Counted from the first letter of the stretch, positions 4,673-59,315 are shown. The stretch is DNA of 64,000 nucleotides from an uncultured bacterium (GCA_963705505.1 CAVPJU010000010.1:28488-92487), one strand, 5' to 3'. Notes: a model not told the origin generated them from the sequence alone. Program-made: numbers and translations.

Positions 4673-4837
4673 CAAATGAATATCTGCGCTAAGCTTGCAA
4701 GAAACGAATAAGGGTGAAATTCACGGAACGATAAAATGGTAAAAGCTGTGCTGGAGGCTGAATGAGCGGTCTGCCAGTCGGATAAAACGGCTGGGAGAAG
4801 GCGGGCCGGACTTGCAGAAAATCTATGAATTAGCTAA

Positions 4838-7299: not shown

Positions 7300-7463
7300 C
7301 GATCTTCTCCTCAACGCTCACTGAGACTGATTAAGATGCATATACTCATTCATATATAAAATATACTTTCGTCATTCGGAAATAACTAATATGGTTATTC
7401 GTTCACACACGCCGAAGTAATATTGTCTCCGGCTTCATGGACGTTCCCGCGTTAAAAGTCGAG

Positions 7464-36747: not shown

Positions 36748-36966
36748 ATGGACATCAAAATAGTACCATATAGGTTCGAGCCGTCATGCGATTGTTCGCC
36801 CGAAGCCGTAGGTTTTGACAAGAGCCTCCACATAGGCAGCGTTCACGCTCCCATTACTTATTGGGGGGTTTTCCTGAACGAGAACAGGGTTTCTACGACC
36901 TCTTCGAGAGAACTCGCCGAAAAGACCAAGGAGTGGATGGAGAACTGGCTGGCAAGCCCGCAATAA
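36748..36966 (+). CDS. small hypothetical protein (72 aa) with own RBS and terminator
   Basis: Strong RBS (AGGAGG-N7-ATG) and a strong terminator directly downstream. I recognise no domain. Confidence 0.5.
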   Translation: MDIKIVPYRFEPSCDCSPEAVGFDKSLHIGSVHAPITYWGVFLNENRVSTTSSRELAEKTKEWMENWLASPQ

Positions 36967-38308: not shown

Positions 38309-39040
38309 ATGCAGGACTCACACACGGATTCAGGATTCGATATCCAAGCCCAGGGACTGACGAAGTCGTTCGGTAATTTTGAAGCCCTCTGCGGGATAGA
38401 CCTCGATATCAGAAAGGGGGAGTTCTTCACCCTGTTCGGCCCGAACGGAGCGGGCAAGACCACTTTTATCCGGATACTCTCCACCCTTGCAAAACCCTCC
38501 TCGGGAAAGCTGACGATATCGGGGTTCGATGCGAGGAAGGAGCCCGACAAGGTGAGACGGGTTACCGGGGTGATATCGCACGACCCGTTTTTATACGAGA
38601 ACCTGAGCGCGTTCGAGAATATAAAATTCTTCGGGACCCTTTACGGGGTCGAGAACATAGATGACAGGGGCGAGGAAGTCATAAAACAGGTCGGACTCGG
38701 TCAGCGCATGCACGATCTCGTGAGGAATTTCAGCCGGGGCATGAAGCAGCGCCTGGCGGTAGCGCGGGCGATAGTACACGAGCCCGGGATACTCCTCCTG
38801 GATGAGCCTTATACGGGGCTCGACCAGCACGGGGCAAAAGTATTCGGGGAGATGCTCACACTCCTTAAATCCCGGAACCGGACGATACTAATGACAACTC
38901 ACAATATGGATGAAGGCCTTGACCGGAGCGACCGTATAGGCATTCTCGCCGGGGGGCGTATAGTCTATGAATGCGGAAGGGAAGGGGTGGATAAGGACAC
39001 CTTCAAGGAAATATACATTTCGAGTGTGGAAAATTCATAA
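38309..39040 (+). CDS. ccmA: ABC transporter ATP-binding protein, heme exporter CcmA-like
   Basis: Walker A GPNGAGKTT, signature FSRGMKQRL, Walker B LLLDEP. It is followed by ccmB and ccmC. Confidence 0.75.
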   Translation: MQDSHTDSGFDIQAQGLTKSFGNFEALCGIDLDIRKGEFFTLFGPNGAGKTTFIRILSTLAKPSSGKLTISGFDARKEPDKVRRVTGVISHDPFLYENLSAFENIKFFGTLYGVENIDDRGEEVIKQVGLGQRMHDLVRNFSRGMKQRLAVARAIVHEPGILLLDEPYTGLDQHGAKVFGEMLTLLKSRNRTILMTTHNMDEGLDRSDRIGILAGGRIVYECGREGVDKDTFKEIYISSVENS

Positions 39041-39318
39041 AACGTAAAATTACTTGAAGTATTTGGATGGCAGGCATGCCAGTTATTACAGGATGATACA
39101 GCAAATATATAATGCAATAACTGATGTTGGTAAATTAATATTTCGGATCACGGTTTAGAGTTAAAATACTTTTATTTACGAGCATTATGCAGAATATTAA
39201 ATATGTATAGTAATAACTACATATCATTGGATATTATGGCTCCACACTGCATCGATTGCCCGTATCCCGGAGTCAAAGTCTCAATCCACGAGAGCCGGAA
39301 GACGGAGGCTGACCCGGA

Positions 39319-39990
39319 TTGAAAAAGGTTTGGGCGATAATCAGGAAGGATTTTGTGACGGAGATGAGGACAAAAGAGCTCTTCTCCTCCATGCTGACAT
39401 TTTCACTCCTGGTTACGGTGATATTCAGCTTCGCTTTCGGGTTCTCGACGGAGCTTGTCAGGCTTTCGGCACCGGCGATGCTATGGATCACGTTCACGTT
39501 CGCCGGGGTCCTCGGCCTCTCCCGCTCGTTCGCGCTGGAGAAGGAAGGTAACGCCGTCCTCGGCCTCCTCCTCACGCCGACGGACAGGAGTCTCATTTAC
39601 TTCGGTAAAATGATAAGCGGCACGGTCTTCGTTTTCATAGTCGGCATTATAATCGTCCCGATGTTCATTCTCTTCTTCAATCTCAGCTTCCTGGCCACTC
39701 TCGTGCCTCTCGTGCCCGTCATATTCCTGGGCGCGCTCGGATTCGTCTCCGTGGGCACGTTGTTTTCAGCTATGGCCGTCAATACGCGGCTCCGCGAGGT
39801 GCTCCTCCCGATACTCCTCTTTCCGATAATCATCCCGCTCATTGTGAGCGCGGTGAAGCTGACGGGACTCGTGCTTGAGGGGAAGCCGCTCTCGGAGGGA
39901 TCTTCCGCTTTACAACTCCTCATAGCATTCGATATAATCTTTATTGCCGCGTGCGCCGTGGTCTTCGAATTCGTGATAGAGGAATCGTAG
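39319..39990 (+). CDS. ccmB: heme exporter protein B
   Basis: 223 aa, 6-TM CcmB-like (FSFAFGF..., ..LLTPTDR...). Confidence 0.75.
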   Translation: MKKVWAIIRKDFVTEMRTKELFSSMLTFSLLVTVIFSFAFGFSTELVRLSAPAMLWITFTFAGVLGLSRSFALEKEGNAVLGLLLTPTDRSLIYFGKMISGTVFVFIVGIIIVPMFILFFNLSFLATLVPLVPVIFLGALGFVSVGTLFSAMAVNTRLREVLLPILLFPIIIPLIVSAVKLTGLVLEGKPLSEGSSALQLLIAFDIIFIAACAVVFEFVIEES

Positions 39991-40003
39991 GGGGCAATTC
40001 AAC

Positions 40004-40675
40004 ATGAGCCGGATAATGAGAAAAGTGCTGGTAGTCCTCACGTTCATAGGCATGGCTGCTTCCCTCTATGCCGCCTTCGTTTACGCACCCACCGAGCCCA
40101 AGATGGGGCACATACAGAGGATATTCTATATCCACATGGGGACTGTGTGGGTTGCGACTGTGGCGTTCATAATCGTATTCGTATCGAGCATTATGTATCT
40201 CTGGAAGGAGAGCAGGAAGTGGGACATCCTCGCTTACTGCTCAGCGGAGATAGGCGTCGTTTTCCTTACCATCACGATACTCACCGGGAGCATCTGGGCA
40301 AAGCCCATATGGGGCACATGGTGGACCTGGGACCCCCAGCTCACGACGACATTTATATTGTGGATACTCTATATCGTTTACCTCGTGCTCAGGTCGTCTG
40401 CCGGCAGCGACACGAAAAAGGCCAAGTTCGCTGCGGTCTTCGGAATAATCGCGTTTATCGACCTGCCGCTCGTATACATATCCGTGAGGGTCATGAGGGG
40501 TATCTCCCCCGTGGTGTTCGGCCCCGGAGGCGGGGGCATTACGCCCGAGATGCTGTATGCCCTCCTGATTAACCTTGCGACGTGTTCCCTTTTATTCATT
40601 TTGCTCCTCCTCGAGCGGATGGACATTGAGCGGATGGGCGACCGACTCGCGGGCTTAAAGGCCGGTAGAACCTGA
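40004..40675 (+). CDS. ccmC: heme exporter protein C
   Basis: WWD-type motif WGTWWTWDPQLTTTFILW and conserved His residues. 223 aa. Confidence 0.82.
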   Translation: MSRIMRKVLVVLTFIGMAASLYAAFVYAPTEPKMGHIQRIFYIHMGTVWVATVAFIIVFVSSIMYLWKESRKWDILAYCSAEIGVVFLTITILTGSIWAKPIWGTWWTWDPQLTTTFILWILYIVYLVLRSSAGSDTKKAKFAAVFGIIAFIDLPLVYISVRVMRGISPVVFGPGGGGITPEMLYALLINLATCSLLFILLLLERMDIERMGDRLAGLKAGRT

Positions 40676-40813
40676 TCCGGGGCGTGTGCGGTCTCATCGC
40701 CGGTCCGCCGCAGCGGGCGGCAATACTTAAGACGTAACATTACTAATACTGTATAATTAGCTTTCAATTAATAAGTATTAAATACGGCTCGGCTCTCTTT
40801 CAGGCAAAAGGCA

Positions 40814-41479
40814 ATGGAAAGTCAAGGCGAAATGTATGACTACTACGTAATAGCGGCGGTAGTCATCGGACTCATCGAGTGCTTTTTCGGCTACAGGATT
40901 CTCAGGTTCCTCCTGGGCGTGCTGGGCTTCATCGCAGGCGCCGTGGTGGCCGGGAGCCTCGGGTACGAGCTCTCAAACGGAAGCGAGCTGATTTCCATTA
41001 TCTCCGGTATAGCGGGCGGTGTCATAGGCGCTTTCATCATGTACACGCTCTACGTAGTGGGGGTGTTTGCCATAGGGGCGGCGCTCGGCTTCATGATAGC
41101 GTCCTACGTTTTCGGCATTATGAATACGGGCCCTGTCACTCTGATGCTCGTAGCCGCAGCCGCGGCAGGCGGTATTCTCGCGGCTGTTTTCCGGAAGCCC
41201 ATGCTTATACTCGCGACCGCTTACGGCGGCTCGTATGCGGCGGTTACGGGGGTTTCGTACCTGCTCGCAAAGAATTTCAATCCTCTCGATCCGGAGTTCC
41301 TGAATTCCCTCGGTGAGGACCAGCTCTACAGGATGGCGATTATATGGTTCGGCCTCGGGGTATTCGGCTTCGTCGTCCAGCTTATGACTCTTCCCGCCGC
41401 TGGAGAAGCCGGGGATTCCGCCGCGGACGACGTCGGGGAAGCGGGTGCCGGAGAGGAGGACGGGGGAAAGGAGTCCTGA
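40814..41479 (+). CDS. multi-pass membrane protein with Gly-zipper helices (possibly DUF4203-like), inserted in the ccm operon
   Basis: 221 aa, ~6 predicted TM helices, acidic C-terminal tail. Confidence 0.5.
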   Translation: MESQGEMYDYYVIAAVVIGLIECFFGYRILRFLLGVLGFIAGAVVAGSLGYELSNGSELISIISGIAGGVIGAFIMYTLYVVGVFAIGAALGFMIASYVFGIMNTGPVTLMLVAAAAAGGILAAVFRKPMLILATAYGGSYAAVTGVSYLLAKNFNPLDPEFLNSLGEDQLYRMAIIWFGLGVFGFVVQLMTLPAAGEAGDSAADDVGEAGAGEEDGGKES

Positions 41480-41552
41480 GGGCGGGCAAAAATCTGCTTT
41501 TATAACTAAAATTAGTCATTGACCGCGGTTAAAATATCCGTGAAACTGAGTA

Positions 41553-42323
41553 TTGCCGATTATTTCCGGCTGCGGGCGTGGTTTTAATAGGGGTAGCGTA
41601 TGGTTTTTTAATTTCCCGTGGGTGCAGGTATTCTTTTTAGAGCCGGTGAGGGAGATTGATTCTATCTTGAAAGCTGTATTGCTTCTCATAGCGCTTGCGG
41701 GTTTATGTTTTGCGGCATCGTGCTACGACTCTGAAGAAAAGGAGTCGAGCGTGATGAGGTTCCCGGTCTCGGACCAGGGTGAATTTAATGCGCTCGGAAA
41801 CGCCGTGATCGATAAGAACGTGACGAGCGACGGGAACGGCTCTCTCTCCGTAGATACTCAGTCGCCGGTGAGCATAGAGCTTTTCACGGTGGACGGCTCC
41901 GGCCTCGACCATACACGCGCCGCTTATAAGGCCATGATCAAGACTGAAGGGCTGACTGCCGCAGGGGATACGAAGGGTATAGCGTATCTCGAAATGAAGG
42001 TGCGTTACCCCGGAGGGGAGGAGCTCGTTTCCCGCGGCCCGCGCATCCCGCCTACGGGGACGACCGATTGGATGCCGGCTGAAGCCGTGCTCTATGCGGA
42101 TAAAGGCGTAAAACCTGACAGGGTCTCGCTCTCTCTTGTGGTCGACGGGAAAGGGAAGGTCTGGATAGACGACGTAATGCTGGTCACGCAGCCCCTAAGG
42201 CTCGAGTACCTCTTTTGGGGGAACACTGTTGTCTGGATAGTACTAATTATATATATTTATCAACTACTCGCGAAACAAAAAAGGCTCCGAAGGGAGCTCG
42301 GCTCGATGAGTCAGGGAACTTAA
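41553..42323 (+). CDS. hypothetical exported protein with N-terminal signal/lipoprotein-like segment and C-terminal TM anchor
   Basis: Hydrophobic N-terminus ..LKAVLLLIALAGLCFAASC and a C-terminal helix VVWIVLIIYIYQLL. The real start may be the TTG near 41658. Confidence 0.45.
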   Translation: MPIISGCGRGFNRGSVWFFNFPWVQVFFLEPVREIDSILKAVLLLIALAGLCFAASCYDSEEKESSVMRFPVSDQGEFNALGNAVIDKNVTSDGNGSLSVDTQSPVSIELFTVDGSGLDHTRAAYKAMIKTEGLTAAGDTKGIAYLEMKVRYPGGEELVSRGPRIPPTGTTDWMPAEAVLYADKGVKPDRVSLSLVVDGKGKVWIDDVMLVTQPLRLEYLFWGNTVVWIVLIIYIYQLLAKQKRLRRELGSMSQGT

Positions 42324-42368
42324 GATAGAATTTTTTGTAACCCCGGTCGTGAAGCCAAGGGTGAGCGA

Positions 42369-42806
42369 ATGCTTAAAGGCAAATTAAAATTCATCGTAGC
42401 GATCGTCGTGATAGCGCTTGCCGTGAGCTATCTGGTTTACGGCGGCGTGAAGGACACCATGGTGTATTACCTCACCGTGAAGGAGCTCAAGAGCAGAGTC
42501 CCTTCTATCTACGGCGAGAAGATCAGGGTGTCGGGGAAGGTCGTGCCGGGGTCCATAAAGCACGGCGCGGACGGGGCGCTCGAGTTCAGCATCGCTGACG
42601 GCGGAGGGGATATCGCTGTCGCTTACAGCGGGATCGTCCCCGATATCTTCAAGGATAACGTTGAAGCCGTCGTCGAAGGCGAGTACACTCCAAAGAACGT
42701 CTTTGAGGCGGATGTGCTCCTGGCCAAGTGTCCGACGAAGTACGAATCGACCGAGGCGCTGTATAATAAACCGGCCTCGGAAAACAAAGGGGTAAAATCC
42801 TACTGA
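42369..42806 (+). CDS. ccmE: cytochrome c-type biogenesis heme chaperone CcmE, Cys-variant (CxxxY instead of HxxxY)
   Basis: N-terminal TM anchor and an OB-fold. ...VLLAKCPTKYES aligns with E. coli ...LAKHDENY (heme-binding His130 replaced by Cys). Confidence 0.8.
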   Translation: MLKGKLKFIVAIVVIALAVSYLVYGGVKDTMVYYLTVKELKSRVPSIYGEKIRVSGKVVPGSIKHGADGALEFSIADGGGDIAVAYSGIVPDIFKDNVEAVVEGEYTPKNVFEADVLLAKCPTKYESTEALYNKPASENKGVKSY

Positions 42807-44812
42807 TGGTAGAGACAGGAAAGATATCAATATATCTGGCTTTCGCCGTATCCATCTATGTCGTATGCGCGTCGATTTACGGCGCGAGGACGGGGAAAGG
42901 CGATTTCATAAACAGCGCCCGGAACGGAGCGCTGGCAGTGTGTTTTCTCCTCATCGTTGCCGCGGGCTCTCTCCTTCATTCTCTCGTAAACCTCGATTTC
43001 AGTCTCAAGTACGTGGCGCTTAACACGAGCACCGATCTCCCGGTGATATACAGGTTTACTTCGCTCTGGGCGGGACAGGCGGGCTCACTCCTCCTCTGGT
43101 CGCTCATCCTGTCCATATACACTGCTCTCGTCGTCCTTTCGACCAGAAACAGATCGAGGAAGCTCATGCCCTATGTCCTGGCCGTTCTCGCGGCCATATT
43201 AGTCTTCTTCACCTACATAGTAGGCTTCGTTGAAAACCCTTTCGAAAAGCTCCCCGTAGCTCCGCTTGAGGGCAGGGGGCTTAACCCCATTCTCCAGAAC
43301 GCGTACATGGCTATCCATCCGGTCACGCTTTACCTCGGCTACGTCGGCGTGAGCGTCCCGTTCGCGTTCGGCATGGGCGCGCTGCTGAGCGGTCAGCTCG
43401 GCGACGAATGGATAAGATACTCCCGCAAATGGACCCTCCTCGCATGGACGTTCCTGAGCGTGGGGCTCCTGCTGGGCGCGCGCTGGGCTTACCTCGAGCT
43501 CGGGTGGGGAGGATACTGGGCGTGGGACCCGGTGGAGAACGCGGCTTTCATGCCCTGGCTTGCGGGCACGGCTTTCCTCCACTCGGTCATGATCCAGGAA
43601 AAGAAGGGCATGCTCAAGAAATGGAACATGGTTCTGTTGATCATCACTTTCTTTCTCGCTATATTCGGCACATTCATAACGCGAAGCGGCGTCATATCGT
43701 CGGTCCACTCATTCGCGCAGAGCGATATAGGCCCGCTCTTTCTGGGCTTCATAGCATTCTTACTTCTTTTTTCGTTCGCCGTGTTCCTCTACCGGATGCG
43801 GGACCTCGAATCCGAAAACAAATTCGACTCGATACTTTCGAGGGAAAGCGCTTTCATATTCAATAACCTGCTTTTCCTGGGCGCCGCGTTCGCGGTTTTC
43901 CTGGGCACGATCTTCCCGATCATGTCGGAGGCCGTGACAGGGCATAAGATCCTCGTGGGCTCGCCGTATTTCAACAGGGTGAACGTTCCGATTGCGCTCG
44001 TGCTTATTTTCCTCATGGGCGTGGGTCCGCTCATATCATGGAGGAAGGCGTCTAAGGAAAACCTCATGAAAAACTTTTTCGTCCCCGTCCTCATAGGCGT
44101 GGTCACTGCCGTCGTGCTGCTGTCGATCGGGGTGAGGGATGTTTACGCGCTCCTCTCTTACGCGTTCTGCGCGTTCGTCACGGGGACGGTATTCACGGAG
44201 TTCTTCCGCGGGGTGCGGGTCAGGAGCGGGAGGGGCGAGAATCCGGCTCTCGCTTTCGTGCGTCTCGTGTCGAGGAACAAGAGGAGATACGGCGGCTACA
44301 TTGTGCATATAGGCGTCGTATTGATAGTCCTGGGCATCACGTCTTCTTCCGTTTTCGTAACGGAGAAGCAGGCGACGCTCACGAAAGGGCAGTCGGTCGA
44401 GATAGGCGGATATACTCTCACGTACCGGGGGCTCGAGCAGTATACGACCGACGCAAAGAACGCCACAGTGGCCAAGCTCGACGGCTTTAAGAACGGAAAG
44501 GACATAGGTCTGATAGCACCCGAAAAGAACGTCTATAAATACGAAGGGAACCGCGAGATAAACCAGGAGACCGAAGTCTCCCTGAGATCGACATTCACCG
44601 ACGACCTCTATGTGATACTGATGAATTACAGCGGGGACGGCTCGGCGACCATCAGGGTCATAGTGAACCCTATGGTAAGCTGGATATGGGCGGGCGGACT
44701 CGTGCTGCTGATGGGGGCTATCGTAACCATGTGGCCCGGCGGACGGAAGGGGCGCGAGGAAGCTTTTGTCAGGTACACGTTAGGCGACAGTGACGGGACC
44801 GTAAAGGTGTAG
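42806..44812 (+). CDS. ccmF: cytochrome c-type biogenesis protein CcmF
   Basis: 668 aa polytopic protein with the WWD domain WGGYWAWDPVENAAFMPWL. Start overlaps the ccmE stop. Confidence 0.88.
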   Translation: MVETGKISIYLAFAVSIYVVCASIYGARTGKGDFINSARNGALAVCFLLIVAAGSLLHSLVNLDFSLKYVALNTSTDLPVIYRFTSLWAGQAGSLLLWSLILSIYTALVVLSTRNRSRKLMPYVLAVLAAILVFFTYIVGFVENPFEKLPVAPLEGRGLNPILQNAYMAIHPVTLYLGYVGVSVPFAFGMGALLSGQLGDEWIRYSRKWTLLAWTFLSVGLLLGARWAYLELGWGGYWAWDPVENAAFMPWLAGTAFLHSVMIQEKKGMLKKWNMVLLIITFFLAIFGTFITRSGVISSVHSFAQSDIGPLFLGFIAFLLLFSFAVFLYRMRDLESENKFDSILSRESAFIFNNLLFLGAAFAVFLGTIFPIMSEAVTGHKILVGSPYFNRVNVPIALVLIFLMGVGPLISWRKASKENLMKNFFVPVLIGVVTAVVLLSIGVRDVYALLSYAFCAFVTGTVFTEFFRGVRVRSGRGENPALAFVRLVSRNKRRYGGYIVHIGVVLIVLGITSSSVFVTEKQATLTKGQSVEIGGYTLTYRGLEQYTTDAKNATVAKLDGFKNGKDIGLIAPEKNVYKYEGNREINQETEVSLRSTFTDDLYVILMNYSGDGSATIRVIVNPMVSWIWAGGLVLLMGAIVTMWPGGRKGREEAFVRYTLGDSDGTVKV

Positions 44813-44858
44813 AAATTCTTAGCAGCTGTATTCAGCACAATTCATAAAAGGGATTAAA

Positions 44859-45398
44859 TTGGAAATTATACTGGCTTTAGTTATAGCTGCGCTTGCGGCT
44901 CTTTTTATTTCGATGCCCTTTTTCTTCAGGAGTAAAAAAAGATTCGGAGCGGAATATTTCCCCGACCCGCGCCAGGAGAAGCTGAAGGCGCTCCTTTCTC
45001 AAAAGGATTCCCTCCTCACGGCGATAAAGGATATCGAGTTCGATCACGGACTCGGAAAATTGTCGGGGGAGGATTTCGAGGAGCTGCACGGGAAGTACAG
45101 GAGCGAAGCCGCCCTGGTGCTGAAACAGATAGACTCTCTCGGCAAAGGAGACGCGGCGGTCGACGATTATGACGATATAGAGAAGGAAATCAGGGCGGAG
45201 CGGATGAAGTTTCTGACGTCTTACGATGACGAAGAGCTTGAGAAGGAGATACTGCGCGCACGCGAGGCAACATGGAATGCCGGCGGCGGAACGGTATTCT
45301 GTTCCAAATGCGGGAGCGCCTGCGAGGAGCAGGATCTCTACTGCTCAAAATGCGGCGCAAAGCTAAAGAATATTACGGAGAATAAAAATGCAGGGTAG
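44859..45398 (+). CDS. membrane-anchored protein with C-terminal zinc-ribbon (CxxC...CxxC)
   Basis: N-terminal TM (MEIILALVIAALAALFISMPFFF), a charged coiled region, and a C-terminal FCSKCGSACEEQDLYCSKCG. Confidence 0.5.
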   Translation: MEIILALVIAALAALFISMPFFFRSKKRFGAEYFPDPRQEKLKALLSQKDSLLTAIKDIEFDHGLGKLSGEDFEELHGKYRSEAALVLKQIDSLGKGDAAVDDYDDIEKEIRAERMKFLTSYDDEELEKEILRAREATWNAGGGTVFCSKCGSACEEQDLYCSKCGAKLKNITENKNAG

Positions 45399-46851
45399 GT
45401 CAGGCGCGTTCATCCTCACGTTTACTTTTCTGGCACTCTTGTTCATCCCCGGTGTATACAGGTCCTACGCCCAGAACCCGCACGATATGGACAAGATGGG
45501 GAAGGACCTTTTTATAGAGAACCGCTGCGTCAGATGCCATACGATAGGGAGGGGGAGGTTTGTGGGCCCCGATTTGAACGGCGTCGGCCAAAGGTACAAC
45601 CGGGACGAGTTAATCAAATGGATCGAGAACCCGCAGGCGGTCTATCAGTCAACGGGCAAGATGCCCATGAATGAAGGCTATCCTCCCATGCCCCCGATGG
45701 ACATCAACCCGATGGTGGCACAGGCCATAGCGGATTATCTCCTCGCTGTCAAAGTGAAGCCCGACACGGGGAAGGGCGGGACTATTATCGGAAAGGTGCT
45801 CAATAAGACCGAGAACACTGCAGTCCCCGACATAAAAGTCACGCTCGTGTCCTATATGGGAGATAAGGAAACGGGCAGGACGGATTCCAAAACTTCAAAG
45901 GACGGCAGCTTCTCGTTCACGGCCCTGCCCTGGGACAGGAGCTACGCGGTCACTATCGAATACGACAGCGCCGAGTACTCTACCGATAAGATGGTCTTCT
46001 ATCCGGACGAGGAGACGAAGACGCTCGACTTGCCCGTGTACGCACCCACGACGAGCGGAGATAGTATAGGCGTGACCGAAGCTCACATGATAGTTCAGGT
46101 GGTCGAGGGAGGCCTTTCTATAGCCGACCTCTCGGTCTTCGACAATAAAGGGGATAAGATGTATGTGGGAAGCGGGGAGCTCGCCGACGGAAAGAAGGAG
46201 ACGCTGAAATTCAGCGTCCCGCCGGACGCGGCTAATATTAATTTCATAAGCGGCCTCGCGCCCGAAAGCATTGTGAGGACACCGTCGGGCTTCTCCGATA
46301 CCGGGAGCGTTGCCCCGGGATCCAAAAGAATTGTATTTGCATATACGCTGCCGCTCGGCTCCGGCAGCGGATCAGTGGAGAAGACGATAGAATACCCCAC
46401 CGAGAAGTTCCTGCTCCTCGTATCGAAATCGAATGACACAGTCACGGTCGAGGGCCTCAGCGGAGGCGATACCGTGCAGATAGAGAAGGAGGATTTCATC
46501 AGGTGGTCGGGCGAGAACCTGAAGCCGGGACAGAAGTTTACGGTCAGGTTTGTGAACCCGACCGCGTGGAAGGAGTATATCAAGTGGGGAGCAATAGGGC
46601 TTTTAATTCTCGTCGTCGGAGGAGGAATAATTTATTCCTCGTTTGCGCGGGGCGGGAGTAAAGATGCCGACGAAGAGAAAAAGAACGGACGGAGAGAATC
46701 GCTCATGGAGAGGAGGAGCCATCTGGTAAAGGAGATAGCGGCTCTTGACGACGGATACGAAGCGGGGCGTATCGACGAAACGGCTTATAAGGAACTCAGG
46801 GAATCTAAGAAGGCGGAGCTTCTTGAAGTTACACGGAGACTGCGATTTTGA
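45388..46851 (+). CDS. monoheme cytochrome c domain protein with carboxypeptidase-regulatory-like beta domain and C-terminal TM anchor
   Basis: Signal peptide; CVRCHT heme-binding motif with a downstream Met; CarbopepD_reg-like segment (IGKVLNKTENTAVPDIKVTLVSY...SFSF); TM WGAIGLLILVVGGGIIY; cytoplasmic coiled tail. Confidence 0.6.
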   Translation: MQGRSGAFILTFTFLALLFIPGVYRSYAQNPHDMDKMGKDLFIENRCVRCHTIGRGRFVGPDLNGVGQRYNRDELIKWIENPQAVYQSTGKMPMNEGYPPMPPMDINPMVAQAIADYLLAVKVKPDTGKGGTIIGKVLNKTENTAVPDIKVTLVSYMGDKETGRTDSKTSKDGSFSFTALPWDRSYAVTIEYDSAEYSTDKMVFYPDEETKTLDLPVYAPTTSGDSIGVTEAHMIVQVVEGGLSIADLSVFDNKGDKMYVGSGELADGKKETLKFSVPPDAANINFISGLAPESIVRTPSGFSDTGSVAPGSKRIVFAYTLPLGSGSGSVEKTIEYPTEKFLLLVSKSNDTVTVEGLSGGDTVQIEKEDFIRWSGENLKPGQKFTVRFVNPTAWKEYIKWGAIGLLILVVGGGIIYSSFARGGSKDADEEKKNGRRESLMERRSHLVKEIAALDDGYEAGRIDETAYKELRESKKAELLEVTRRLRF

Positions 46852-51863: not shown

Positions 51864-51972
51864 TACTATTTTCTGACATACGACAGGGACGGGTTTCATT
51901 AATATCAATCGTTCCCGATAGTTACGATTGGCATTTAACTTTCTTAATAGTAATCGCAAAAGGAGGCTTTGC

Positions 51973-52380
51973 ATGTTGAAAAATAAGACTTTCTCATTCC
52001 CCGCCAGGATGCTGTTTATGATGCTGGTCGTTACTTTAAGTTTTCACATTTTTGTTCCCGTTTCCATCGGTTCGTCTGACGATGAGGTCGTGGAGAAGGG
52101 CCAAAAGGTTTTTCAGGACAAGGGATGTGTGGCGTGTCACTCGATAGGGAAGGGCAAGATCACAGGGCCCGACCTCTTCGGCGTTACTCAAAGGAGAGAT
52201 CCGGCTTGGATTAAGAAATGGATCATGTCCCCCGATACCATGATCATGTCGGACCCCATCGCGAAAGAATTATTCAAACAATACATGGTTCCGATGCCTA
52301 ATCAGGGGCTCACGGACGAACAGGCGGACATACTCATTGAGTATTTCAAGTATCAAGATGCTAACAACGCAAAAAAGTAA
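51973..52380 (+). CDS. monoheme c-type cytochrome (nos-associated)
   Basis: AGGAGG RBS before ATG 51973; signal/TM MLKNKTFSFPARMLFMMLVV...; CVACHS heme motif. Located immediately upstream of nosZ. Confidence 0.75.
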   Translation: MLKNKTFSFPARMLFMMLVVTLSFHIFVPVSIGSSDDEVVEKGQKVFQDKGCVACHSIGKGKITGPDLFGVTQRRDPAWIKKWIMSPDTMIMSDPIAKELFKQYMVPMPNQGLTDEQADILIEYFKYQDANNAKK

Positions 52381-52419
52381 ATCTATGAGAAACCTTTTTA
52401 CACAAGGAGGTACGTAAAC

Positions 52420-54464
52420 ATGTCAGGATTGAAGAAGTGGATCACATTATTGCCGGTTTTTTTCTTGGCTCTGACTACGGTCTTTTTTACGAGCTGTAGG
52501 AATTCCGGTAGTGAGAAGCAGGCGAGTAAACAGGAGACCGTAACATGGGGATTGTCCGAGAGGCGGAGCAGGTAGCGGAGTCGAGGGGTCTTACGCCCAA
52601 GGACGTTGAGGCCGCTCTCAAGACTTACGTGCCTTCGGGGAAATATGACGATTACCTGATGTTTGCCTCCGGAGGACATTCCGGTCAGGTGTTCGTCATT
52701 GGCGTTCCTTCTATGAGGCTCCTCAAAGAGATAGCGGTATTCACGCCGGAGCCCTGGCAGGGATTTGCGACCGGATCGAAGGAGTCGGACGATTTACTGA
52801 AAGAAGGCTATATGCCCAACGGAAAAGACGGAAAGCTTACCTGGGCGGATACACACCACCCCGCTCTAAGCGAGACGAAAGGCGATTACGACGGACAGTT
52901 CTTATTCATAAACGATAAAGCCAATGCGAGGATCGCAGTCATCGACCTCCGCGACTTTGAAGTAAAACAGATCGTAAAGACGCCGAACATGATCTCGGAT
53001 CACGGCGCTACCTTTGTTACCCCGAATACCGAATACGTAATTGAGGGTTCCCAGTATGCAACGCCCCTTCCTTTCGAACGATACGCTCCTATGGATGAGT
53101 ATAAGGACAAATACAGGGGTCTCATTACGTTTCATAAGTTCGACAGGGAGAAGGGAAGGATAGACGAGTCCCAGTCATTCCAGATCGAGCTGCCTCCCTA
53201 CTGGCAGGACCTCTGCGACGCCGGGAAGAAAGTCAGTGAAGGATGGGTATTCTGCAACTCCATAAATACGGAGCTCGCCACAGGCGGCATTGAGCAGGGC
53301 AACCCTCCCTATGAAGCGGGCGTATCTCAAAGAGACATGGACTATATGCACGTAATTAACCTGAACAAGGCCGTCGAGGTTTCAAAAGAGGCGGGCAAGA
53401 CAGAGGTTATTAACGGAATGAAGGTAATTCCGCTCAACACGGCTATCTCGGAAGGTCTTTTGTATTTCATACCGGAGCCCAAGAGCCCCCACGGAGTCGA
53501 TGTAGCCCCGGGAGGAGATTATATAGTCGCTTCCGGCAAGCTCGACACACACGCGACGGTATATTCCTTCGACAAGATAATGGATGCCATGAAAAATAGC
53601 AAAATCGAGGGTAAGGATCCCTTCGGCGTCCCTGTACTGAACTTTAAGGATGTCGTCGCAGCGCAGGTCGAGATAGGCCTCGGGCCTCTCCATACGCAGT
53701 TCGATAACGAGGGTAACGCATATACGAGCGTTTTTATCGAGAGTACGGTTGCAAAATGGAAACTGGGCCCTCCTTACAATACGGGGGCAGACGCCTGGAC
53801 CCTCGTTGAGAAGATGCCGGTTGACTACAACATAGGCCACCTGGTTTGTGCGGAGGGCGATACCGTGTCCCCGGACGGCAAGTACTGTGTCGCGCTGAAC
53901 AAGTGGTCCATAGACAGGTTTACTCCGGTCGGCCCGCTGCATCCTCAGAATTTCCAGCTGATAGACATTTCGGGAAAGAAGATGCAGCTGCTTTACGATA
54001 TGCCTATAGGCTCAGGCGAGCCGCATTACGTTCAGATGATCAAGGCTGACAAGCTCAAACCATGGCTCGTTTATCCGGAGGTGGGATTTGATCCGGCGAC
54101 GATGAGCGTCAATCCCGACGCGGCAAAAGCCGGGGGTGAGAAAGTCGTGCGGAGTAACGGAAAAGTCGAGGTATGGATGACCGCTATCAGGAGCCATTAC
54201 AACCCCGAGCACATAGTCGCGAGCGAAGGGGATAAAGTAATAATACATATCACGAGCGTGGAGCGGGCGAGGGACGCTACACACGGTTTCGCCATCGACG
54301 GCTACAACGTTAACCTGAGCCTGGAGCCGGGTGAAAGCGAGACGGTGGAGTTCGTCGCGGACAAGGTTGGTGTGTATCCGTTCTACTGCACGGAGTTCTG
54401 CTCGGCGCTTCACCTGGAGATGATGGGTTATCTCCTTGTTGAGCCAAAACAGCCAAAGTCATGA
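52420..54464 (+). CDS. nosZ: nitrous-oxide reductase NosZ, Sec/lipoprotein-type (clade II-like); signal peptide and mature domain in different frames
   Basis: C-terminal CuA cupredoxin site ...FYCTEFCSALHLEMMGY; N-terminal beta-propeller region. The signal peptide MSGLKKWITLLPVFFLALTTVFFTSC (no twin-Arg) starts at 52420 and ends at a stop near 52570. The body ORF starts at 52545 in the -1 frame. One extra G in the G4 run at 52547-52550 would fuse the two parts. Confidence 0.85.
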
Positions 54465-54558
54465 ACTACTGAGGGCGCCCCATCCGGACCTTTAGTCACG
54501 GGAAGTGAAGGAGGGGGCGTCCTCGGTTCTAACCCAAAACGGAATAAGGAGGTTTGTT

Positions 54559-54928
54559 ATGAAAAAGTTAATAGCGCCGTTTTTACTTGTAACTTTGTTA
54601 GTGTTAGCGGGCGCCGTTTACGGAGCCCAAAATGCAAGAGACTGCCCAGTCGTGGCAGAAGCAGGCAAACGATACCAGGGCAGCTGTTATGAAAGTCTAC
54701 GGCGAGCTCGAGAAGCTGGATGTCAAGTCAGCAGCCGATGCGAAGGATCTTATTGCCGATGCCGTCGCCCAGCTCGGCGAAGGGGATAAGTACCTTAAGC
54801 AGGGGGACGAAGCCATGAATAAACAGGATTGGGAAAAGGCTAATTACGGTTATAACATGGCATGGCAGTATTACGTAAAAGCCGCAACATCCGGATTAAA
54901 TGCAAAGAGAATTTTAACCGGACAATAA
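54559..54928 (+). CDS. small secreted protein downstream of nosZ, apparent +1 frameshift between signal peptide and body
   Basis: AGGAGG RBS; signal peptide MKKLIAPFLLVTLLVLAGAVYGAQ; helical body MQETAQSWQKQ...AWQYYVKAA in the next frame. The A4 run at 54629-54632 is the likely indel site. Confidence 0.5.
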
Positions 54929-55061
54929 AAACTCAGGAGAACGGCGGTTCTCCCATACGACTGGGGACGCTCTTGAATAGCGGATATTTTAGAGTATTCC
55001 CCGCCGGTTGTTCAGAAGGGCCGATCTGAATACGATGTTATTACGAACGGAGGTTTAAAAA

Positions 55062-55715
55062 ATGAAAGAAAACGAATTGATATTCGGGCCGCGAATACCG
55101 AAGGAGCTGTGGGAGAAGGAGAGAAAGAGGTTTCTTGTTCCTTCGATCGTCCTCGTCGTTGCCGCGGTGCTGCTTTTCATCTCGATATTTCTCCCTTATT
55201 GGAAACTTACACTTTTCGCGCCTCAGTATCCTCAGGGTCTCAAAGCCAGTATGTACGTAAACAGGCTTGCGGGGGATATTCAGGAGATAGACGGGCTCAA
55301 TCACTATATAGGAATGAAGCCCATGGACGAGGCTGCCGTGCTCGAACGCACGCTCAGCATATTCATGATCATCGGTATAGCGCTCCTCATCGCGGGGGCC
55401 GTATACGTGCACAGCCCGATTGCGCTTTTCCTGTGCATCCCGGCGGTGCTTTACCCCGCGTTCTTTCTGGGCGACCTCTATTTCTGGATGCGGACCTTCG
55501 GCACGAACCTTAATCCGCACGCCCCTTTAAGCAGTGCGATAAAGCCCTTCGTACCACCCATACTCGGCGTGGGCCAGATCGCACAATTCAAGACTATCGC
55601 GAGCTGGGAGATAGGTCTCTATATGTCTATCGCGGCTTCGGTACTGATTGTCATAGGCCTCTACTTTCATCGTAAAGCTTATAAGCCGTTAATAGTAAAT
55701 GAAGGCGTCAGGTAG
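55062..55715 (+). CDS. nosB: NosB-like integral membrane protein (nos cluster)
   Basis: 217 aa, ~4-5 TM helices, positioned between nosZ and nosD as in clade II nos clusters. Confidence 0.55.
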   Translation: MKENELIFGPRIPKELWEKERKRFLVPSIVLVVAAVLLFISIFLPYWKLTLFAPQYPQGLKASMYVNRLAGDIQEIDGLNHYIGMKPMDEAAVLERTLSIFMIIGIALLIAGAVYVHSPIALFLCIPAVLYPAFFLGDLYFWMRTFGTNLNPHAPLSSAIKPFVPPILGVGQIAQFKTIASWEIGLYMSIAASVLIVIGLYFHRKAYKPLIVNEGVR

Positions 55716-55741
55716 AGAAAGGTGTAAATCCCGGGTGACCC

Positions 55742-57142
55742 GTGACTAAATATTGCCTTCTACATTTTTCCACGATCGTTATTCTTGCCCTCTCCGGAGC
55801 TGTGAACGGAGCGGCTGTCGCCAGGACAATCCATGTCTCACCGGACGGCCCCGTAAGATCAATTACTGAGGCTATAGCTTCTGCTGAGAGCGGTGATACC
55901 ATACGCATCCTGAAGGGAGACTATAAAGAACATATAGTAATCAACAAGACTTTAACAATTATAGGAGAGGGTTATCCCCGCATAGACGGCGGGGGGAAAG
56001 GAGTCGTCGTTTTAATAAAAGCCCCGAGTACCGTATTCAGGGGTATTCATGTGACGGGGAGCGGCGACAGCCTGAACCTTGAGGACGCTGGTATTATCCT
56101 CGATTCCGCACACGGGAGCGTCATAAAAGAAAACCGGCTCGATGATGTGCTCTTCGGTATATACCTCAAAAACTCTCCCGACAGTGTAATAGAAAAGAAC
56201 GTCGTCGAGGGCAAGCGGCTTACACTTCCCGAACGCGGCGACGGAATAAAGCTCTGGTACAGCTCAGGGACGAAGATACTCTATAACCGGGTCCTCCACA
56301 CTAGGGACCTTGTTATTTGGTGGTCGAGCAATACGCTTATAAAAGGGAATACCGTCGAGGAAGGAAGATACGGACTTCATTACATGTCGAGTAACCATAA
56401 CAGGTTCGAGGACAACATTTTCAGGAATAACTATGTGGGCGGGTTCCTCATGTATAGCAAGGGGATTGAGTTTTACAGGAATAGGTTCGTCAGTAACCGC
56501 GGCACGGGGTCGGGCTACGGAGTCGGGTTCAAGGACCTCGACGACGTAGTAGCCAAAGACAACCTTATCGCGGACAACCGCGTTGGAATCTTTCTCGATA
56601 ACTCGCCCTACCTCATCGATTCGTGGAATAATATAAGCGACAACGTTATAGCTTTCAACGACATAGGCGTCTCCCTCATGCCTTCGATAAGGAGGAACGC
56701 TTTTCACAAGAACAGCTTCGTAGATAACGACGAGCAGGTGGAGATAAGGGGAGGGGGAGAGCTTGCAGGGAACGAATGGTCCAAGGACGGCAGCGGGAAT
56801 TACTGGAGCGATTACATCGGATATGACGAGGACGGGGACGGGATAGGAGAGATACCCTACAAGTCCGAGAGCCTCTTCGAGAGCCTTATAGACTCGAAGC
56901 CCGAGCTCAGGATATTCGTGTTCAGCCCTGTTGCGAAGGCAATAGAGCTCGCTTCTCAGGCGTTTCCCGTGATCAAGCCCGAGCCCAAGCTCACGGACGA
57001 CTATCCGCTCGTCAGCTCGGCGATACCGCCTGACCTCAGGGCAGGCGGGAGGGAAAGGGAGTTGTCGCCGAGGCTTCTTTTCCTGTCCCTCTCTATGGTG
57101 ATGCTTCCCCTGATCTTTTACGGCTACATTATGAAACGGTAA
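55742..57142 (+). CDS. nosD: NosD, periplasmic parallel beta-helix copper-processing protein
   Basis: Signal peptide, repeated right-handed beta-helix units (NxxxxNxxxGI...), C-terminal TM. 466 aa. Confidence 0.82.
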   Translation: MTKYCLLHFSTIVILALSGAVNGAAVARTIHVSPDGPVRSITEAIASAESGDTIRILKGDYKEHIVINKTLTIIGEGYPRIDGGGKGVVVLIKAPSTVFRGIHVTGSGDSLNLEDAGIILDSAHGSVIKENRLDDVLFGIYLKNSPDSVIEKNVVEGKRLTLPERGDGIKLWYSSGTKILYNRVLHTRDLVIWWSSNTLIKGNTVEEGRYGLHYMSSNHNRFEDNIFRNNYVGGFLMYSKGIEFYRNRFVSNRGTGSGYGVGFKDLDDVVAKDNLIADNRVGIFLDNSPYLIDSWNNISDNVIAFNDIGVSLMPSIRRNAFHKNSFVDNDEQVEIRGGGELAGNEWSKDGSGNYWSDYIGYDEDGDGIGEIPYKSESLFESLIDSKPELRIFVFSPVAKAIELASQAFPVIKPEPKLTDDYPLVSSAIPPDLRAGGRERELSPRLLFLSLSMVMLPLIFYGYIMKR

Positions 57143-57155
57143 ACGGGAGCTTGAA

Positions 57156-58055
57156 TTGATTGAGATTAAGAACGTAACGAAGCGTTTCGGAAAGCTGACT
57201 GCAGTCGATTCGGTGAGCTTCAGGGCTGAAAAGGGTGAAGCGGTTTCCCTCCTCGGCGCGAACGGCGCCGGAAAGAGCACGCTTATCAAATGCATACTCG
57301 GGCTCCTCGATTATACGGGCGAGATTACGGTGAGCGGGCTCAGGGTGAAAGACCACCCGAAGGAGGCGAAGTCCCTAATCGGATACCTGCCGCAGGAGCC
57401 TCTTTTCTACGATATGCGCACACTCGATATAGTACGTTTCTTCGCGCGGCTCAGGAAAATTGACGAGAGGGGTTCATTGTCGGTCCTGGAGAAAGTGGGG
57501 CTTGGGGAGCACTCTTCCAAATACGCTTCAGAGCTTTCGGGAGGCATGAGGCAGCGCCTCTCTTTCGCTATAGCGCTTCTATCAGAGCCTATGTTCCTGA
57601 TACTGGACGAGCCCACTTCCAACCTCGATGCTCACGCGCGCGCTGAATTCCTCAGGCTAATCAAGGAATACAAGGAGAACGGTAAGACGGTGATCTTTTC
57701 CTCGCACAGGCTCGACGAGGTGGACTATCTGGCTGACAGGGCGGTCCTGATGAAAGACGGCAGTGTCGTCATGGACGAGGAGCCGCACAGGCTGAGGCAG
57801 TCCCTCGGGCTCGGCACGAAGATGAATATCGCTGTCCCTGAGGAGTATGTCACACTGGCGTATTCGGCGTTCGCCGGTGCCGGCATAATAGTTCACGGCA
57901 GAAACGGAAGGGGCTTCCTCGTGGAGGTGAAGAGCGGGGACAGCCTCCATCCTCTGAGGGAGCTGATGTCGAGAGACATACCCGTCCTCGGGTTCAGCGT
58001 CGAGGAGCCTACCATGGAAAATATACTCGAAGGAGCGGGAAAAGATGGAGCTTAG
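57156..58055 (+). CDS. nosF: NosF, ABC transporter ATP-binding protein
   Basis: Walker A GANGAGKST, signature LSGGMRQRL, Walker B LILDEPTSNLD. Confidence 0.82.
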   Translation: MIEIKNVTKRFGKLTAVDSVSFRAEKGEAVSLLGANGAGKSTLIKCILGLLDYTGEITVSGLRVKDHPKEAKSLIGYLPQEPLFYDMRTLDIVRFFARLRKIDERGSLSVLEKVGLGEHSSKYASELSGGMRQRLSFAIALLSEPMFLILDEPTSNLDAHARAEFLRLIKEYKENGKTVIFSSHRLDEVDYLADRAVLMKDGSVVMDEEPHRLRQSLGLGTKMNIAVPEEYVTLAYSAFAGAGIIVHGRNGRGFLVEVKSGDSLHPLRELMSRDIPVLGFSVEEPTMENILEGAGKDGA

Positions 58056-58884
58056 AAATATTCTCATACTGGCGGGGAAGGAAACGAGGGAGTCGCTCAA
58101 GAACAGGTGGTTCGTTTTATATACCGTCTCTTTTTCCGTCCTCGCCGTGCTCATCTTTTCTATAGCGCCCGGGAGGGGCGAGATCACGGGCATATCGGGC
58201 TACGGCAGGACGGCCGCGAGCCTGGTCAACCTCGTGCTTCTCTTTGTCCCGCTAATAGCGCTTATAACCGGAGCGATAAGCATATCCGGGGAGAGAGAGA
58301 ACGGAACGCTGCAGTACCTGCTCTCGCACCCCGTAACCAAATCCGAGGTGTTCGTGGGCAAGTTCTGCGGGATACTCATCCCGATCTGTTTTTCAATTTC
58401 GCTCGGTTTCGGGCTCGCCGGTATAGGAGTCGCGCTCAGAGGCGGGAGCGGGAACTCGGCGGAGTTCATACTGACTGCGCTCCTATCGGGGCTCCTGGCT
58501 GCGTCCCTGCTGAGCGTGGGGTTTGTCGTCTCGGTGTTTTCGGGCAGGGCTTCGAAGGCGATAGGCGTCGCGGTGTTCCTCTGGCTCCTTTTTATCGTTC
58601 TCGGAGACCTCGGCATCATGGGCACAGCTGCAGCGATGGACCTCGGCATAAAGCAGGTCTTCGTGCTCGCGCTGCTAAACCCGGCGGAGGTGTTCAAGAT
58701 CGCTTCCGTGCTCGTGCTCAGTCCGCGGTTCGAGATACTGGGCCCAGTCGGAGTTTACGCCGTCAGGACGTTCGGCAGGGAAGGGGTGGTCTATCTGCTC
58801 CTCTCCGTCATGGCGCTATGGACCATCATACCGTTCGTATATGCATTTATAACTTTCAGCATATTCAGGAGGGAAGAAGCATGA
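58045..58884 (+). CDS. nosY: NosY, ABC-2 type permease
   Basis: 279 aa, 6-TM permease. Overlaps nosF and nosL. Confidence 0.78.
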   Translation: MELRNILILAGKETRESLKNRWFVLYTVSFSVLAVLIFSIAPGRGEITGISGYGRTAASLVNLVLLFVPLIALITGAISISGERENGTLQYLLSHPVTKSEVFVGKFCGILIPICFSISLGFGLAGIGVALRGGSGNSAEFILTALLSGLLAASLLSVGFVVSVFSGRASKAIGVAVFLWLLFIVLGDLGIMGTAAAMDLGIKQVFVLALLNPAEVFKIASVLVLSPRFEILGPVGVYAVRTFGREGVVYLLLSVMALWTIIPFVYAFITFSIFRREEA

Positions 58885-59315
58885 AATACTTGCTCATACT
58901 GCTTGTGCTCCTGGGTTTCGCCGCCTGTAAGGATAAAATCGATACCGGGCCTCATATTATTCATTACGGGGAAGATGTCTGCGAGAGGTGCAAGATGATT
59001 ATAAGCGACAAGCGTTTTGCCGCCCAATACATCACGGAGAGCGGCGAGGCTAAAAAATTCGACGATATAGGGTGCATGATGGAGGCGCTCAAAGAGAAAA
59101 ACAAGGACGGTGGCGGCGTGCTCGCCGTCTATGTCACCGACTACGTCACCGGGGAATGGATAGACGGCGGAAAGGCTTTTTATCTCAAAAACACGGAGCT
59201 CAAGACCCCTATGGGGTACGGTATTGCAGCTTTCGGAAACGAGGAATCGATGCGGGCGAGCCCATTTTATAAGGACGGGCGGGCGCTCGGGGGAATCGAT
59301 GACCTCCAGAAATAA
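58881..59315 (+). CDS. nosL: NosL, copper-chaperone lipoprotein
   Basis: MKYLLILLVLLGFAAC (lipobox), then a conserved NosL core (...GPHIIHYGEDVCERCKMII...DIGCM...). It sits in frame inside the spurious 402-aa ORF 58107..59315. Confidence 0.8.
   Translation: MKYLLILLVLLGFAACKDKIDTGPHIIHYGEDVCERCKMIISDKRFAAQYITESGEAKKFDDIGCMMEALKEKNKDGGGVLAVYVTDYVTGEWIDGGKAFYLKNTELKTPMGYGIAAFGNEESMRASPFYKDGRALGGIDDLQK

Follow-up and report, generated by a model that had tools for sequence, protein, structure and literature searches.

The stretch of DNA examined here, 64,000 nucleotides from an uncultured bacterium (GCA_963705505.1, CAVPJU010000010.1:28488-92487) and referred to below as the window, carries on its + strand a block of genes for cytochrome c maturation (ccm). 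The block (38309-46851; coordinates are window positions unless a related locus is named) is a System I* cluster, that is, one with a cysteine-type CcmE, of an uncultured Candidatus Dadabacteria bacterium. The explanation that we consider reasonably probable for the block as a whole is a Cys-CcmE System I in which CcmD is fused to a periplasmic domain and a CcmI-like module is split over two genes beside ccmF. A Cys-CcmE system without CcmH and CcmG is already known and is not in itself new (Allen et al., 2006; Goddard et al., 2010; summarized in PMC3601427 and PMC9084895). System I* works without CcmH and CcmG and needs CcmD (PMC3601427, section 8; PMC9084895), and the question has been raised whether non-orthologous proteins stand in for the Ccm parts that are missing (PMC9084895).

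The Cys-CcmE cluster and its fused ccmD

Gene families were assigned by Pfam and NCBIfam searches with the cut-offs of those databases, and gene order was compared through a tblastn map of 24 related loci. System I is indicated by a WWD motif in both CcmC and CcmF and by an OB-fold heme chaperone domain in CcmE (PF01578, PF16327, and PF03100). A preliminary description, made from the sequence alone, had also recognized a System I ccm operon with a Cys-type CcmE; the family assignments and the alignment of the AKCPTKY motif confirm this, and all nine open reading frames (ORFs) that it listed are present on the + strand where it placed them. The CcmE motif aligns to AKHDENY of Escherichia coli, with Cys121 in place of His130 and the tyrosine kept (CxxxY). 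The WWD motif of CcmF is WGGYWAWDPVEN, 222 of 632 residues are identical to E. coli CcmF, and equivalents of all four conserved E. coli histidines (H173, H261, H303, and H491; two periplasmic and two transmembrane (TM)) are aligned. The absence of ccmG and ccmH from the window, as first described, was borne out by an all-ORF motif scan and Pfam scans of 40 further ORFs: no thioredoxin-like, CcmH (PF03918) or DsbD/CcdA family ORF was found anywhere in the 64 kb, and no ORF of the window has a WCxxC or LRCxxC motif. Neither gene lies within +/-10 kb of the ccm locus in the related locus L001. Around one third of Cys-CcmE bacteria do possess CcmH (PMC3601427). The features of the block are as follows:

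38309-39040, +, ccmA (PF00005 ABC_tran 4.7e-30; TIGR01189 123.9 bits, just under the 131.6 cut-off; upstream of ccmB in relatives too)
39041-39318, intergenic gap between ccmA and ccmB (278 nt, 37% GC; promoter-like site at 39085-39113)
39319-39990, +, ccmB (PF03379 2.9e-30; TTG start with GGAGG upstream)
40004-40675, +, ccmC variant (PF01578 4.7e-33; TIGR01191 118 bits, under the 186 cut-off)
40814-41479, +, TM7S3/TM198-like (DUF4203) polytopic membrane protein of 221 amino acids (aa) (PF13886 1.1e-19)
41646-42323, +, ccmD (alternative family) fused to a periplasmic beta-sandwich (TIGR04391; mechanical 256-aa ORF at 41553-42323)
42369-42806, +, ccmE, Cys type (PF03100 7.5e-28; AKCPTKY at 42723-42743)
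42806-44812, +, ccmF heme lyase (PF16327 7.8e-67, PF01578 1.6e-38, TIGR00353 491.7 bits; WWD motif at 43505-43540)
44859-45398, +, TM and Zn-ribbon protein, putative first half of the CcmI-like module (Zn_Ribbon_1 1.1e-4)
45388-46851, +, cytochrome c and CarboxypepD_reg protein, putative second half of the CcmI-like module (PF00034 1.6e-8, PF13620 9.3e-6)

Four of these proteins had been left unassigned at first, and a family can now be given for each of them: PF13886, TIGR04391, Zn_Ribbon_1, and PF00034 together with PF13620. The second of the four decides the question of CcmD, which the preliminary description had reported as missing between CcmC and CcmE. This is contradicted by the ORF directly upstream of ccmE, as residues 218-250 of its 256 (the C-terminal 33) match TIGR04391 (CcmD_alt_fam) at 27.5-27.8 bits against a cut-off of 24 (E 2e-6), and the same family is matched by 24 of the 28 aligned homologues. 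The ORF had been described as a 256-aa exported, anchored protein; it does exist, but the length is merely mechanical. Translation probably begins within 41622-41667 and not at the mechanical TTG (41553), because homologues are 214-233 aa long and the signal peptide and lipobox follow GTG 41646 or TTG 41667. Within the protein the following features were placed:

41712-41723, +, lipobox-like AASC after the signal peptide
~41748-42194, +, jelly roll (~150 aa) resembling carbohydrate-binding modules (CBMs)
42204-42302, +, CcmD helix and basic tail

In an AlphaFold2 (AF2) model (pLDDT 79), residues 35-183 form a beta-sandwich that leads directly into one long helix at 186-223, and the top matches of the sandwich among PDB structures in Foldseek were CBM70, 30, 16, 22, and 61 (E 6e-7 to 1e-4, 12-20% identity). 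Signal peptide, periplasmic domain, TM helix, and the basic tail KQKRLRR together imply an N-out/C-in topology as in E. coli CcmD, which cryo-EM shows in that orientation next to CcmC (PMC10457321). The protein thus shares with E. coli CcmD (PF04995) a single TM helix, an N-terminus outside, a basic cytoplasmic tail, and a gene directly upstream of ccmE. However, the canonical protein is small (69 aa in E. coli), whereas here the helix makes up the last 15% of a lipoprotein-like protein of 218-233 aa. Similarity to E. coli CcmD is also not detectable, the above-cut-off match being to the alternative family: no Pfam family, PF04995 included, was found for the 256-aa ORF at E<=0.1, and hhalign against E. 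coli CcmD gave E 0.29 over 3 columns only.

Full-length homologues of the fusion form ~80 protein clusters (42-100% identity), all from metagenome-assembled genomes (MAGs) of Candidatus Dadabacteria/Thermodesulfobacteriota and representing more than 20 species genomes, and the fusion is retained in all 20+ Dadabacteria loci, including the L017 chromosome. The beta-sandwich is a domain accretion onto CcmD and not a replacement of it. More generally, a small Ccm protein that seems to be "missing" can be concealed as the C-terminal helix of a larger ORF. The same sandwich also occurs apart from CcmD: an Ignavibacteria MAG encodes it as a separate lipoprotein of 179 aa (L026, 8001-8540) in an unrelated setting, beside genes for NRAMP, exonuclease III, and photolyase, and a 287-aa family (proteins P0082-P0091) has it joined to a region of the DUF4190 (PF13828) type.

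The gene order is kept across the whole class, in more than 20 related species genomes, and the genes first left unassigned are conserved in the lineage with it. In relatives it reads pyruvoyl arginine decarboxylase (PvlArgDC, - strand), epimerase, ccmA, a variable gap, ccmB, ccmC, the TM198-like gene, a second variable gap, the ccmD fusion, ccmE, ccmF, the Zn-ribbon gene, the cytochrome gene, rsmE (- strand), and cobA/hemD (- strand). From the ccmD fusion to the last gene the intergenic spacings in the window are 45, -1, 46, and -11 nt, with the ccmF start overlapping the ccmE stop and the start of the cytochrome gene overlapping the Zn-ribbon gene by 11 nt. This close spacing, set against the gaps of 138 and 166 nt that flank the TM198-like gene, indicates that the ccmD fusion, ccmE, ccmF, and the two trailing genes form a tight unit. 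Two loci with the full Dadabacteria-type ccm cluster and flanks (L009 and L011) are recorded as "uncultured Spirochaetia bacterium", which is probably a taxonomic mislabel of the MAGs.

The two genes after ccmF

The tight unit ends with two genes whose products have the following parts:

44862-44927, +, Zn-ribbon protein, N-terminal TM
44979-45134, +, Zn-ribbon protein, cytoplasmic helical motif
45300-45353, +, Zn-ribbon protein, Zn ribbon CxxC...CxxC
45526-45540 (CVRCH) and 45676-45699 (GYPPMPPM), +, cytochrome protein, monoheme cytochrome c domain, which follows the signal peptide
~45778-46038, +, cytochrome protein, CarboxypepD_reg sandwich
~46066-46554, +, cytochrome protein, second beta domain
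46585-46644, +, cytochrome protein, TM
46690-46842, +, cytochrome protein, cytoplasmic helical tail motif

The two genes are a split form of one protein, because other bacteria have both halves in a single chain. The Rosetta-stone fusions P0403 and P0337 (479 and 493 aa) carry both halves without the heme domain. In the 501-aa fusions of L035-37 the Zn ribbon is kept as well, placed after the motif and ahead of the second TM. At the N-terminus, residues 45-119 of the Zn-ribbon protein are 43% identical to residues 39-110 of P0403 (E 6e-12), and past the second TM, residues 118-483 of the cytochrome protein are 29% identical to P0403-type residues 114-474 (E 1e-51). The full parts list of the single protein is a TM, the helical motif, sometimes a Zn ribbon, a second TM, CarboxypepD_reg, a further beta domain, a third TM, and the tail motif. 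In the split form the second TM has turned into a signal peptide, with a cytochrome c domain added. The AF2 model of the cytochrome protein (pLDDT 79) shows a small helical cytochrome domain, CarboxypepD_reg at 131-217, a beta domain at 227-389, a TM at 391-420, and a cytoplasmic helical hairpin. An hhalign comparison (E 1.3e-3, probability 18%) aligns this hairpin with the cytoplasmic motif that the Zn-ribbon protein has behind its N-terminal TM. The helical motif (L..I..L..DY..G.I.E..Y..L) resembles SHOCT-like motifs, and two or three tandem C-terminal copies of it stand after a TM in the large (505-635 aa) extracellular-domain proteins P0346, P0359, and P0376.

Direct protein searches found both trailing families confined to the same MAG lineage, and outside Dadabacteria the cytochrome c domain turned up in a single close relative only. 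The TM and motif part is far more widespread: a profile of the first 98 positions of the Zn-ribbon protein, run against 1.84 billion representatives, retrieved 3892 proteins at E<=1e-3, mostly of ~90-250 aa. We gathered 28 module loci, four by exact-protein look-ups and 24 from metagenomes (27 via the TM and motif gene or domain, L038 via the beta-sandwich gene). In 28 of 28 the module belongs to a ccm cluster and immediately follows ccmF or ccmF-ccmH, that is, it stands in the ccmI slot, although the motif-based scans behind this collection may bias it toward ccm-linked members. Wherever ccmE was in range it was of the Cys type (13/13, CPSKY or CPTKY). The commonest order is ccmE-ccmF-ccmH-mini-ccmA-ccmB-ccmC, where "mini" is the small TM and motif gene, with a small alternative-type ccmD next in L046 and L052. 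L034 has ccmF-ccmH, then a gene for TM, motif, and a double Zn ribbon, then one for a signal peptide and CarboxypepD_reg. L033 has ccmF, a 98-aa mini gene, and a cytochrome and CarboxypepD_reg gene whose product is 42% identical to that of the window. The high-GC locus L038 has ccmABC, a small ccmD, ccmE (CPTKY), ccmF, an 84-aa mini gene, a beta-sandwich gene, and a diheme cytochrome gene, with no ccmH. A mini-CcmI (TM and motif), alone or joined to or followed by a periplasmic beta-sandwich protein, is a widespread companion of ccmF or ccmF-ccmH in Cys-CcmE clusters of several lineages.

In classical CcmI a cytoplasmic loop connects two TMs (PMC3884852), and after these comes a periplasmic tetratricopeptide repeat (TPR) domain that handles the apocytochrome (PMC3884852; PMC3601427). 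The module is like CcmI/CycH in its slot after ccmF(-ccmH) and, in the fused relatives, in the succession of TM, cytoplasmic helical loop, TM, and large periplasmic domain. It differs in having beta-sandwiches instead of TPRs, a further TM at the C-terminus, and the cytoplasmic motif in two copies. For the mini proteins and fusions, TIGR03142 (the CcmI N-terminal domain) was essentially the sole NCBIfam match, at 15-26 bits against a cut-off of 29.3 (E 8e-6 to 0.03). By these sub-threshold scores, by position, and by topology, the module is a candidate homologue of CcmI.

Several observations weigh against this interpretation. The Zn-ribbon protein of the window itself has no TIGR03142 match at E<=10, all relatives score below the cut-off, and when the Zn-ribbon family was compared by hhalign with the E. 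coli CcmH/CcmI fusion, all that came out was a spurious CxxC match over 10 columns. A TPR domain is lacking, the periplasmic part being CarboxypepD_reg plus a beta-sandwich. The helical motif recurs in the three large, unrelated proteins mentioned above, and the relative P0397 has a weak SHOCT match (E 0.0023) elsewhere in the protein, so that the motif may be a generic, membrane-proximal oligomerization element. The association of the pair with CcmF is one that we infer, and the heme-bearing domain might be nothing more than a respiratory cytochrome that has been joined to an anchor. A PDB sequence search with the TM and motif profile gave nothing significant (best E 0.046). The best Foldseek matches of the cytochrome protein were ribophorin I/Ost1 of the oligosaccharyltransferase (PDB 8b6l_O and 6s7o_E), which likewise has tandem non-cytoplasmic beta-sandwiches, one TM, and a cytoplasmic helical segment; this likeness is one of architecture only (7-10% identity, root-mean-square deviation (rmsd) >20 A) and no function is drawn from it. 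Matches to the M1 aminopeptidase N-domain had a large rmsd and were not used for function either.

The respiratory interpretation can be taken further. The last gene might encode an ordinary membrane-anchored respiratory cytochrome c, a Ccm substrate riding in the operon and serving as carrier to an oxidase or to a nearby N2O reductase, with the Zn-ribbon protein unrelated to it. The heme domain does pass the gathering score of class I cytochromes (PF00034; 36.2 bits against 21.3), with heme attachment predicted, and it resembles oxidase-associated cytochromes (FixO/CBB3 matches). Its CxxCH residues (C47, C50, and H51) and GYPPMPP within the Met-ligand region GYPPMPPM are invariant among 32 homologues, as in a functional class I cytochrome. 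Ccm operons are often found near their client genes, and 5 kb downstream there is a nos cluster that includes a cytochrome c of its own. However, homologues of the non-heme part (29% over 365 residues) that have no heme domain occupy the same slot after ccmF(-ccmH), fused to the Zn-ribbon N-terminal module. As these keep the ccmF slot, we regard a purely respiratory role of the whole protein as unlikely, though such a role may hold for the added heme domain, and we rate the alternative as such as rather unlikely.

The module is not a substitute for CcmH, because relatives of it coexist with ccmH in 23 of the 28 loci. A thioredoxin fold is found in neither trailing protein, and their sole periplasmic CxxC is the heme-binding CVRCH, not a redox motif. 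We also considered whether the heme domain compensates for the loss of CcmH, as it is seen only where ccmH is absent, but L038 lacks both, and the link is treated as anecdotal because it comes from essentially one lineage (Dadabacteria and L033). The CcmH-family (PF03918) genes that precede the module in other lineages (L031, 896-1354; L032, 1204-1674; L034, 329-799) encode CSCGCNK/CNCGCNK or CPSDC and not the canonical LRCxxC.

The variant CcmC and the TM198-like gene

CcmC of the window retains the WWD motif WGTWWTWD (40310-40333) and the equivalent of His60 (RIFYIH, 40118-40135), but in place of His184, which has been discussed as the likely distal heme ligand of CcmC (PMC10457321), it has a serine in RVMRGISP (residues 162-169; 40487-40510), so that only one of the two periplasmic histidines is present. 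The last periplasmic loop reads RVMRGISPV in Dadabacteria, against EWWNTLHQG in E. coli and RWWRTIHPV in other System I* clusters, and both tryptophans are gone. The serine is found in all Dadabacteria and in the high-GC L038 (RYLRALSPV), which resembles Dadabacteria also in its CPTKY CcmE and lack of ccmH, whereas six other Cys-CcmE clusters have RWWRTIHPV. A phmmer alignment of CcmC to PDB 7f02_C ends at residue 162. Met164 was considered as a stand-in ligand and rejected, since the better alignment to System I* proteins puts the serine at the histidine position and L038 has a leucine at that of the methionine. The domain fused to CcmD has no invariant His, Met or Cys in the homologue alignment. 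A CcmC lacking His184 does exist in nature.

Between ccmC and the ccmD fusion lies the gene for the Gly-zipper protein, which passes the PF13886 gathering score (71.3 bits against 29.2). It is present at this position in ~19 Dadabacteria species genomes (34-81% identity). The L017 chromosome lacks it and keeps the remainder of the locus. It is separated from ccmD by a foreign gene in L008 and by gaps of ~0.8-1.9 kb in L005, L006, and L020. A tblastn search (E<=1e-4) of the ccm loci L031-L058, which lie outside Dadabacteria and in several cases extend from ccmC to ccmE or ccmD, found no TM198 homologue. The gene is probably a dispensable accessory or passenger and not a core component.

Its conserved position, in the same genomes whose CcmC lacks the His184 equivalent, could alternatively mean that the TM198-like protein is a real extra subunit of the CcmABCD complex that, for example, offsets the lost His184 region. 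We consider this improbable, as both L017 and L038 have the same change in CcmC without the TM198 gene, insertions between the gene and ccmD reach ~2.2 kb in relatives, and its wide flanks in the window (138 and 166 nt) are unlike those of the tightly coupled downstream genes.

The proposal of the preliminary description, that ccmD is absent and replaced by the two inserted genes while the two trailing genes replace CcmG and CcmH, could draw on the missing PF04995 match, on the lack of ccmG and ccmH in 64 kb, and on the conservation of the genes in the lineage, but it is very improbable given the bona fide CcmD alternative-family helix in the second inserted gene, the loss of the TM198 gene in L017 and its separation from ccmD by foreign genes elsewhere, the co-occurrence of trailing-module relatives with ccmH in other bacteria, and the lack of a thioredoxin fold or periplasmic redox CxxC in the trailing proteins. 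What stands of it is that no canonical ccmD, ccmG or ccmH lies adjacent within the 64 kb and that both inserted genes are present in relatives. Of these two, however, one is ccmD itself, and the TM198-like gene, missing in L017 and separated from ccmD in others, has little claim to be a functional replacement. The trailing genes are lineage-conserved as had been supposed, yet as apparent halves of one CcmI-like module they are more a CcmI analogue than a replacement of CcmG or CcmH.

Proposed mechanism, context and neighboring genes

In the mechanism that we propose, CcmA, CcmB, CcmC, and CcmD would load heme onto the membrane-anchored chaperone CcmE via Cys121. From the E. coli CcmABCD structure, the sandwich fused to CcmD would be expected on the periplasmic face next to the WWD/heme site of CcmC, beside CcmC and CcmE. 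CcmF would then ligate heme to apocytochromes together with the translationally coupled, two-gene CcmI-like module. The TM helices of the module and its cytoplasmic motifs, one per half, may bind each other and dock on CcmF, and the periplasmic sandwiches may hold or present the apocytochrome near the WWD site of CcmF, as the TPR domain does in classical CcmI; such a chaperone role is suggested by position and architecture. The Zn ribbon would be a cytoplasmic add-on of some lineages only, while the heme domain may act as a tethered electron carrier or redox helper. Since it carries this heme domain, the accessory protein would itself be a client of the Ccm system. A biogenesis accessory protein may thus itself be a c-type cytochrome.

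Compared with the known System I*, the cluster has the same CxxxY (CPTKY) CcmE, the same ccmABCDEF complement, no ccmH or ccmG, and a CcmI-type accessory gene after ccmF. The absence of CcmG is also known from Desulfovibrio. Unlike the known systems, it has a ~150-aa periplasmic sandwich on CcmD, a CcmC without the His184 equivalent, an extra TM198-like gene, and a CcmI-like function that would be spread over two genes, with beta-sandwiches in place of TPRs and with a Zn ribbon and a c-type heme domain in addition. CcmI was reported to enhance cytochrome production by System I* without being strictly required (PMC3601427, section 8). For a helper of CcmF in System I*, the trailing module is a concrete candidate. 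As far as the literature that we found shows, the CcmD fusion, the split non-TPR CcmI-like module widespread in Cys-CcmE clusters, and the His184-less CcmC are new, and no paper combines them.

A bolder proposal would be that Dadabacteria and at least one high-GC lineage (L038) represent a distinct sub-type of System I*, in which the second axial histidine of CcmC is lost, CcmH is gone, and the CcmI analogue is a non-TPR beta-sandwich protein. In Dadabacteria the covalent c-type heme of this analogue would serve not respiration but the reaction itself, for instance holding the heme bound to the CcmE cysteine or the heme b of CcmF in the reduced state, while the CcmD-fused sandwich would reshape the hand-over site between CcmC and CcmE. 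Taken as a whole we hold this to be quite unlikely.

The ccmA/ccmB and TM198/ccmD junctions are variable gaps that take up foreign DNA in relatives. The ccmA-ccmB gap holds a Cytochrome_P460-like gene in L001 (6832-7329) and a DNA methylase and restriction-enzyme-like (restriction-modification) pair in the 1.78-Mb chromosome L017 (4723-6387), and the TM198-ccmD gap of L008 holds a gene for a 477-aa secreted protein with an IPTL-CTERM-like tail (6285-7718). In the window the ccmA-ccmB gap measures exactly what the preliminary description had claimed and is indeed AT-rich, its GC content comparing with 54% in the block. The gap sequence is not conserved between relatives, and no remnant ORF was found in that of the window; a remnant of the P460-like gene of L001 was also looked for, with no tblastn match. 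An Rfam scan (E<=1) found no RNA family in 36-48 kb, and the block shows no excess of terminator-like sites (11 observed, 10.6 expected).

Upstream are the genes for the pyruvoyl arginine decarboxylase and the epimerase, with a 72-aa ORF (36748-36966, +) between them, and in L001 a 72-aa gene without a Pfam match is called in the same place (4529-4747). Downstream, at 51928-59315, lies the nos-type (N2O reductase) cluster, with the following features:

51928-52380, small cytochrome c
52545-54464, NosZ-like protein with nos_propeller repeat
55062-55715, unassigned 217-aa ORF
55742-57142, NosD
57156-58055, ABC ATPase
58107-59315, 402-aa protein with a NosL domain at its end

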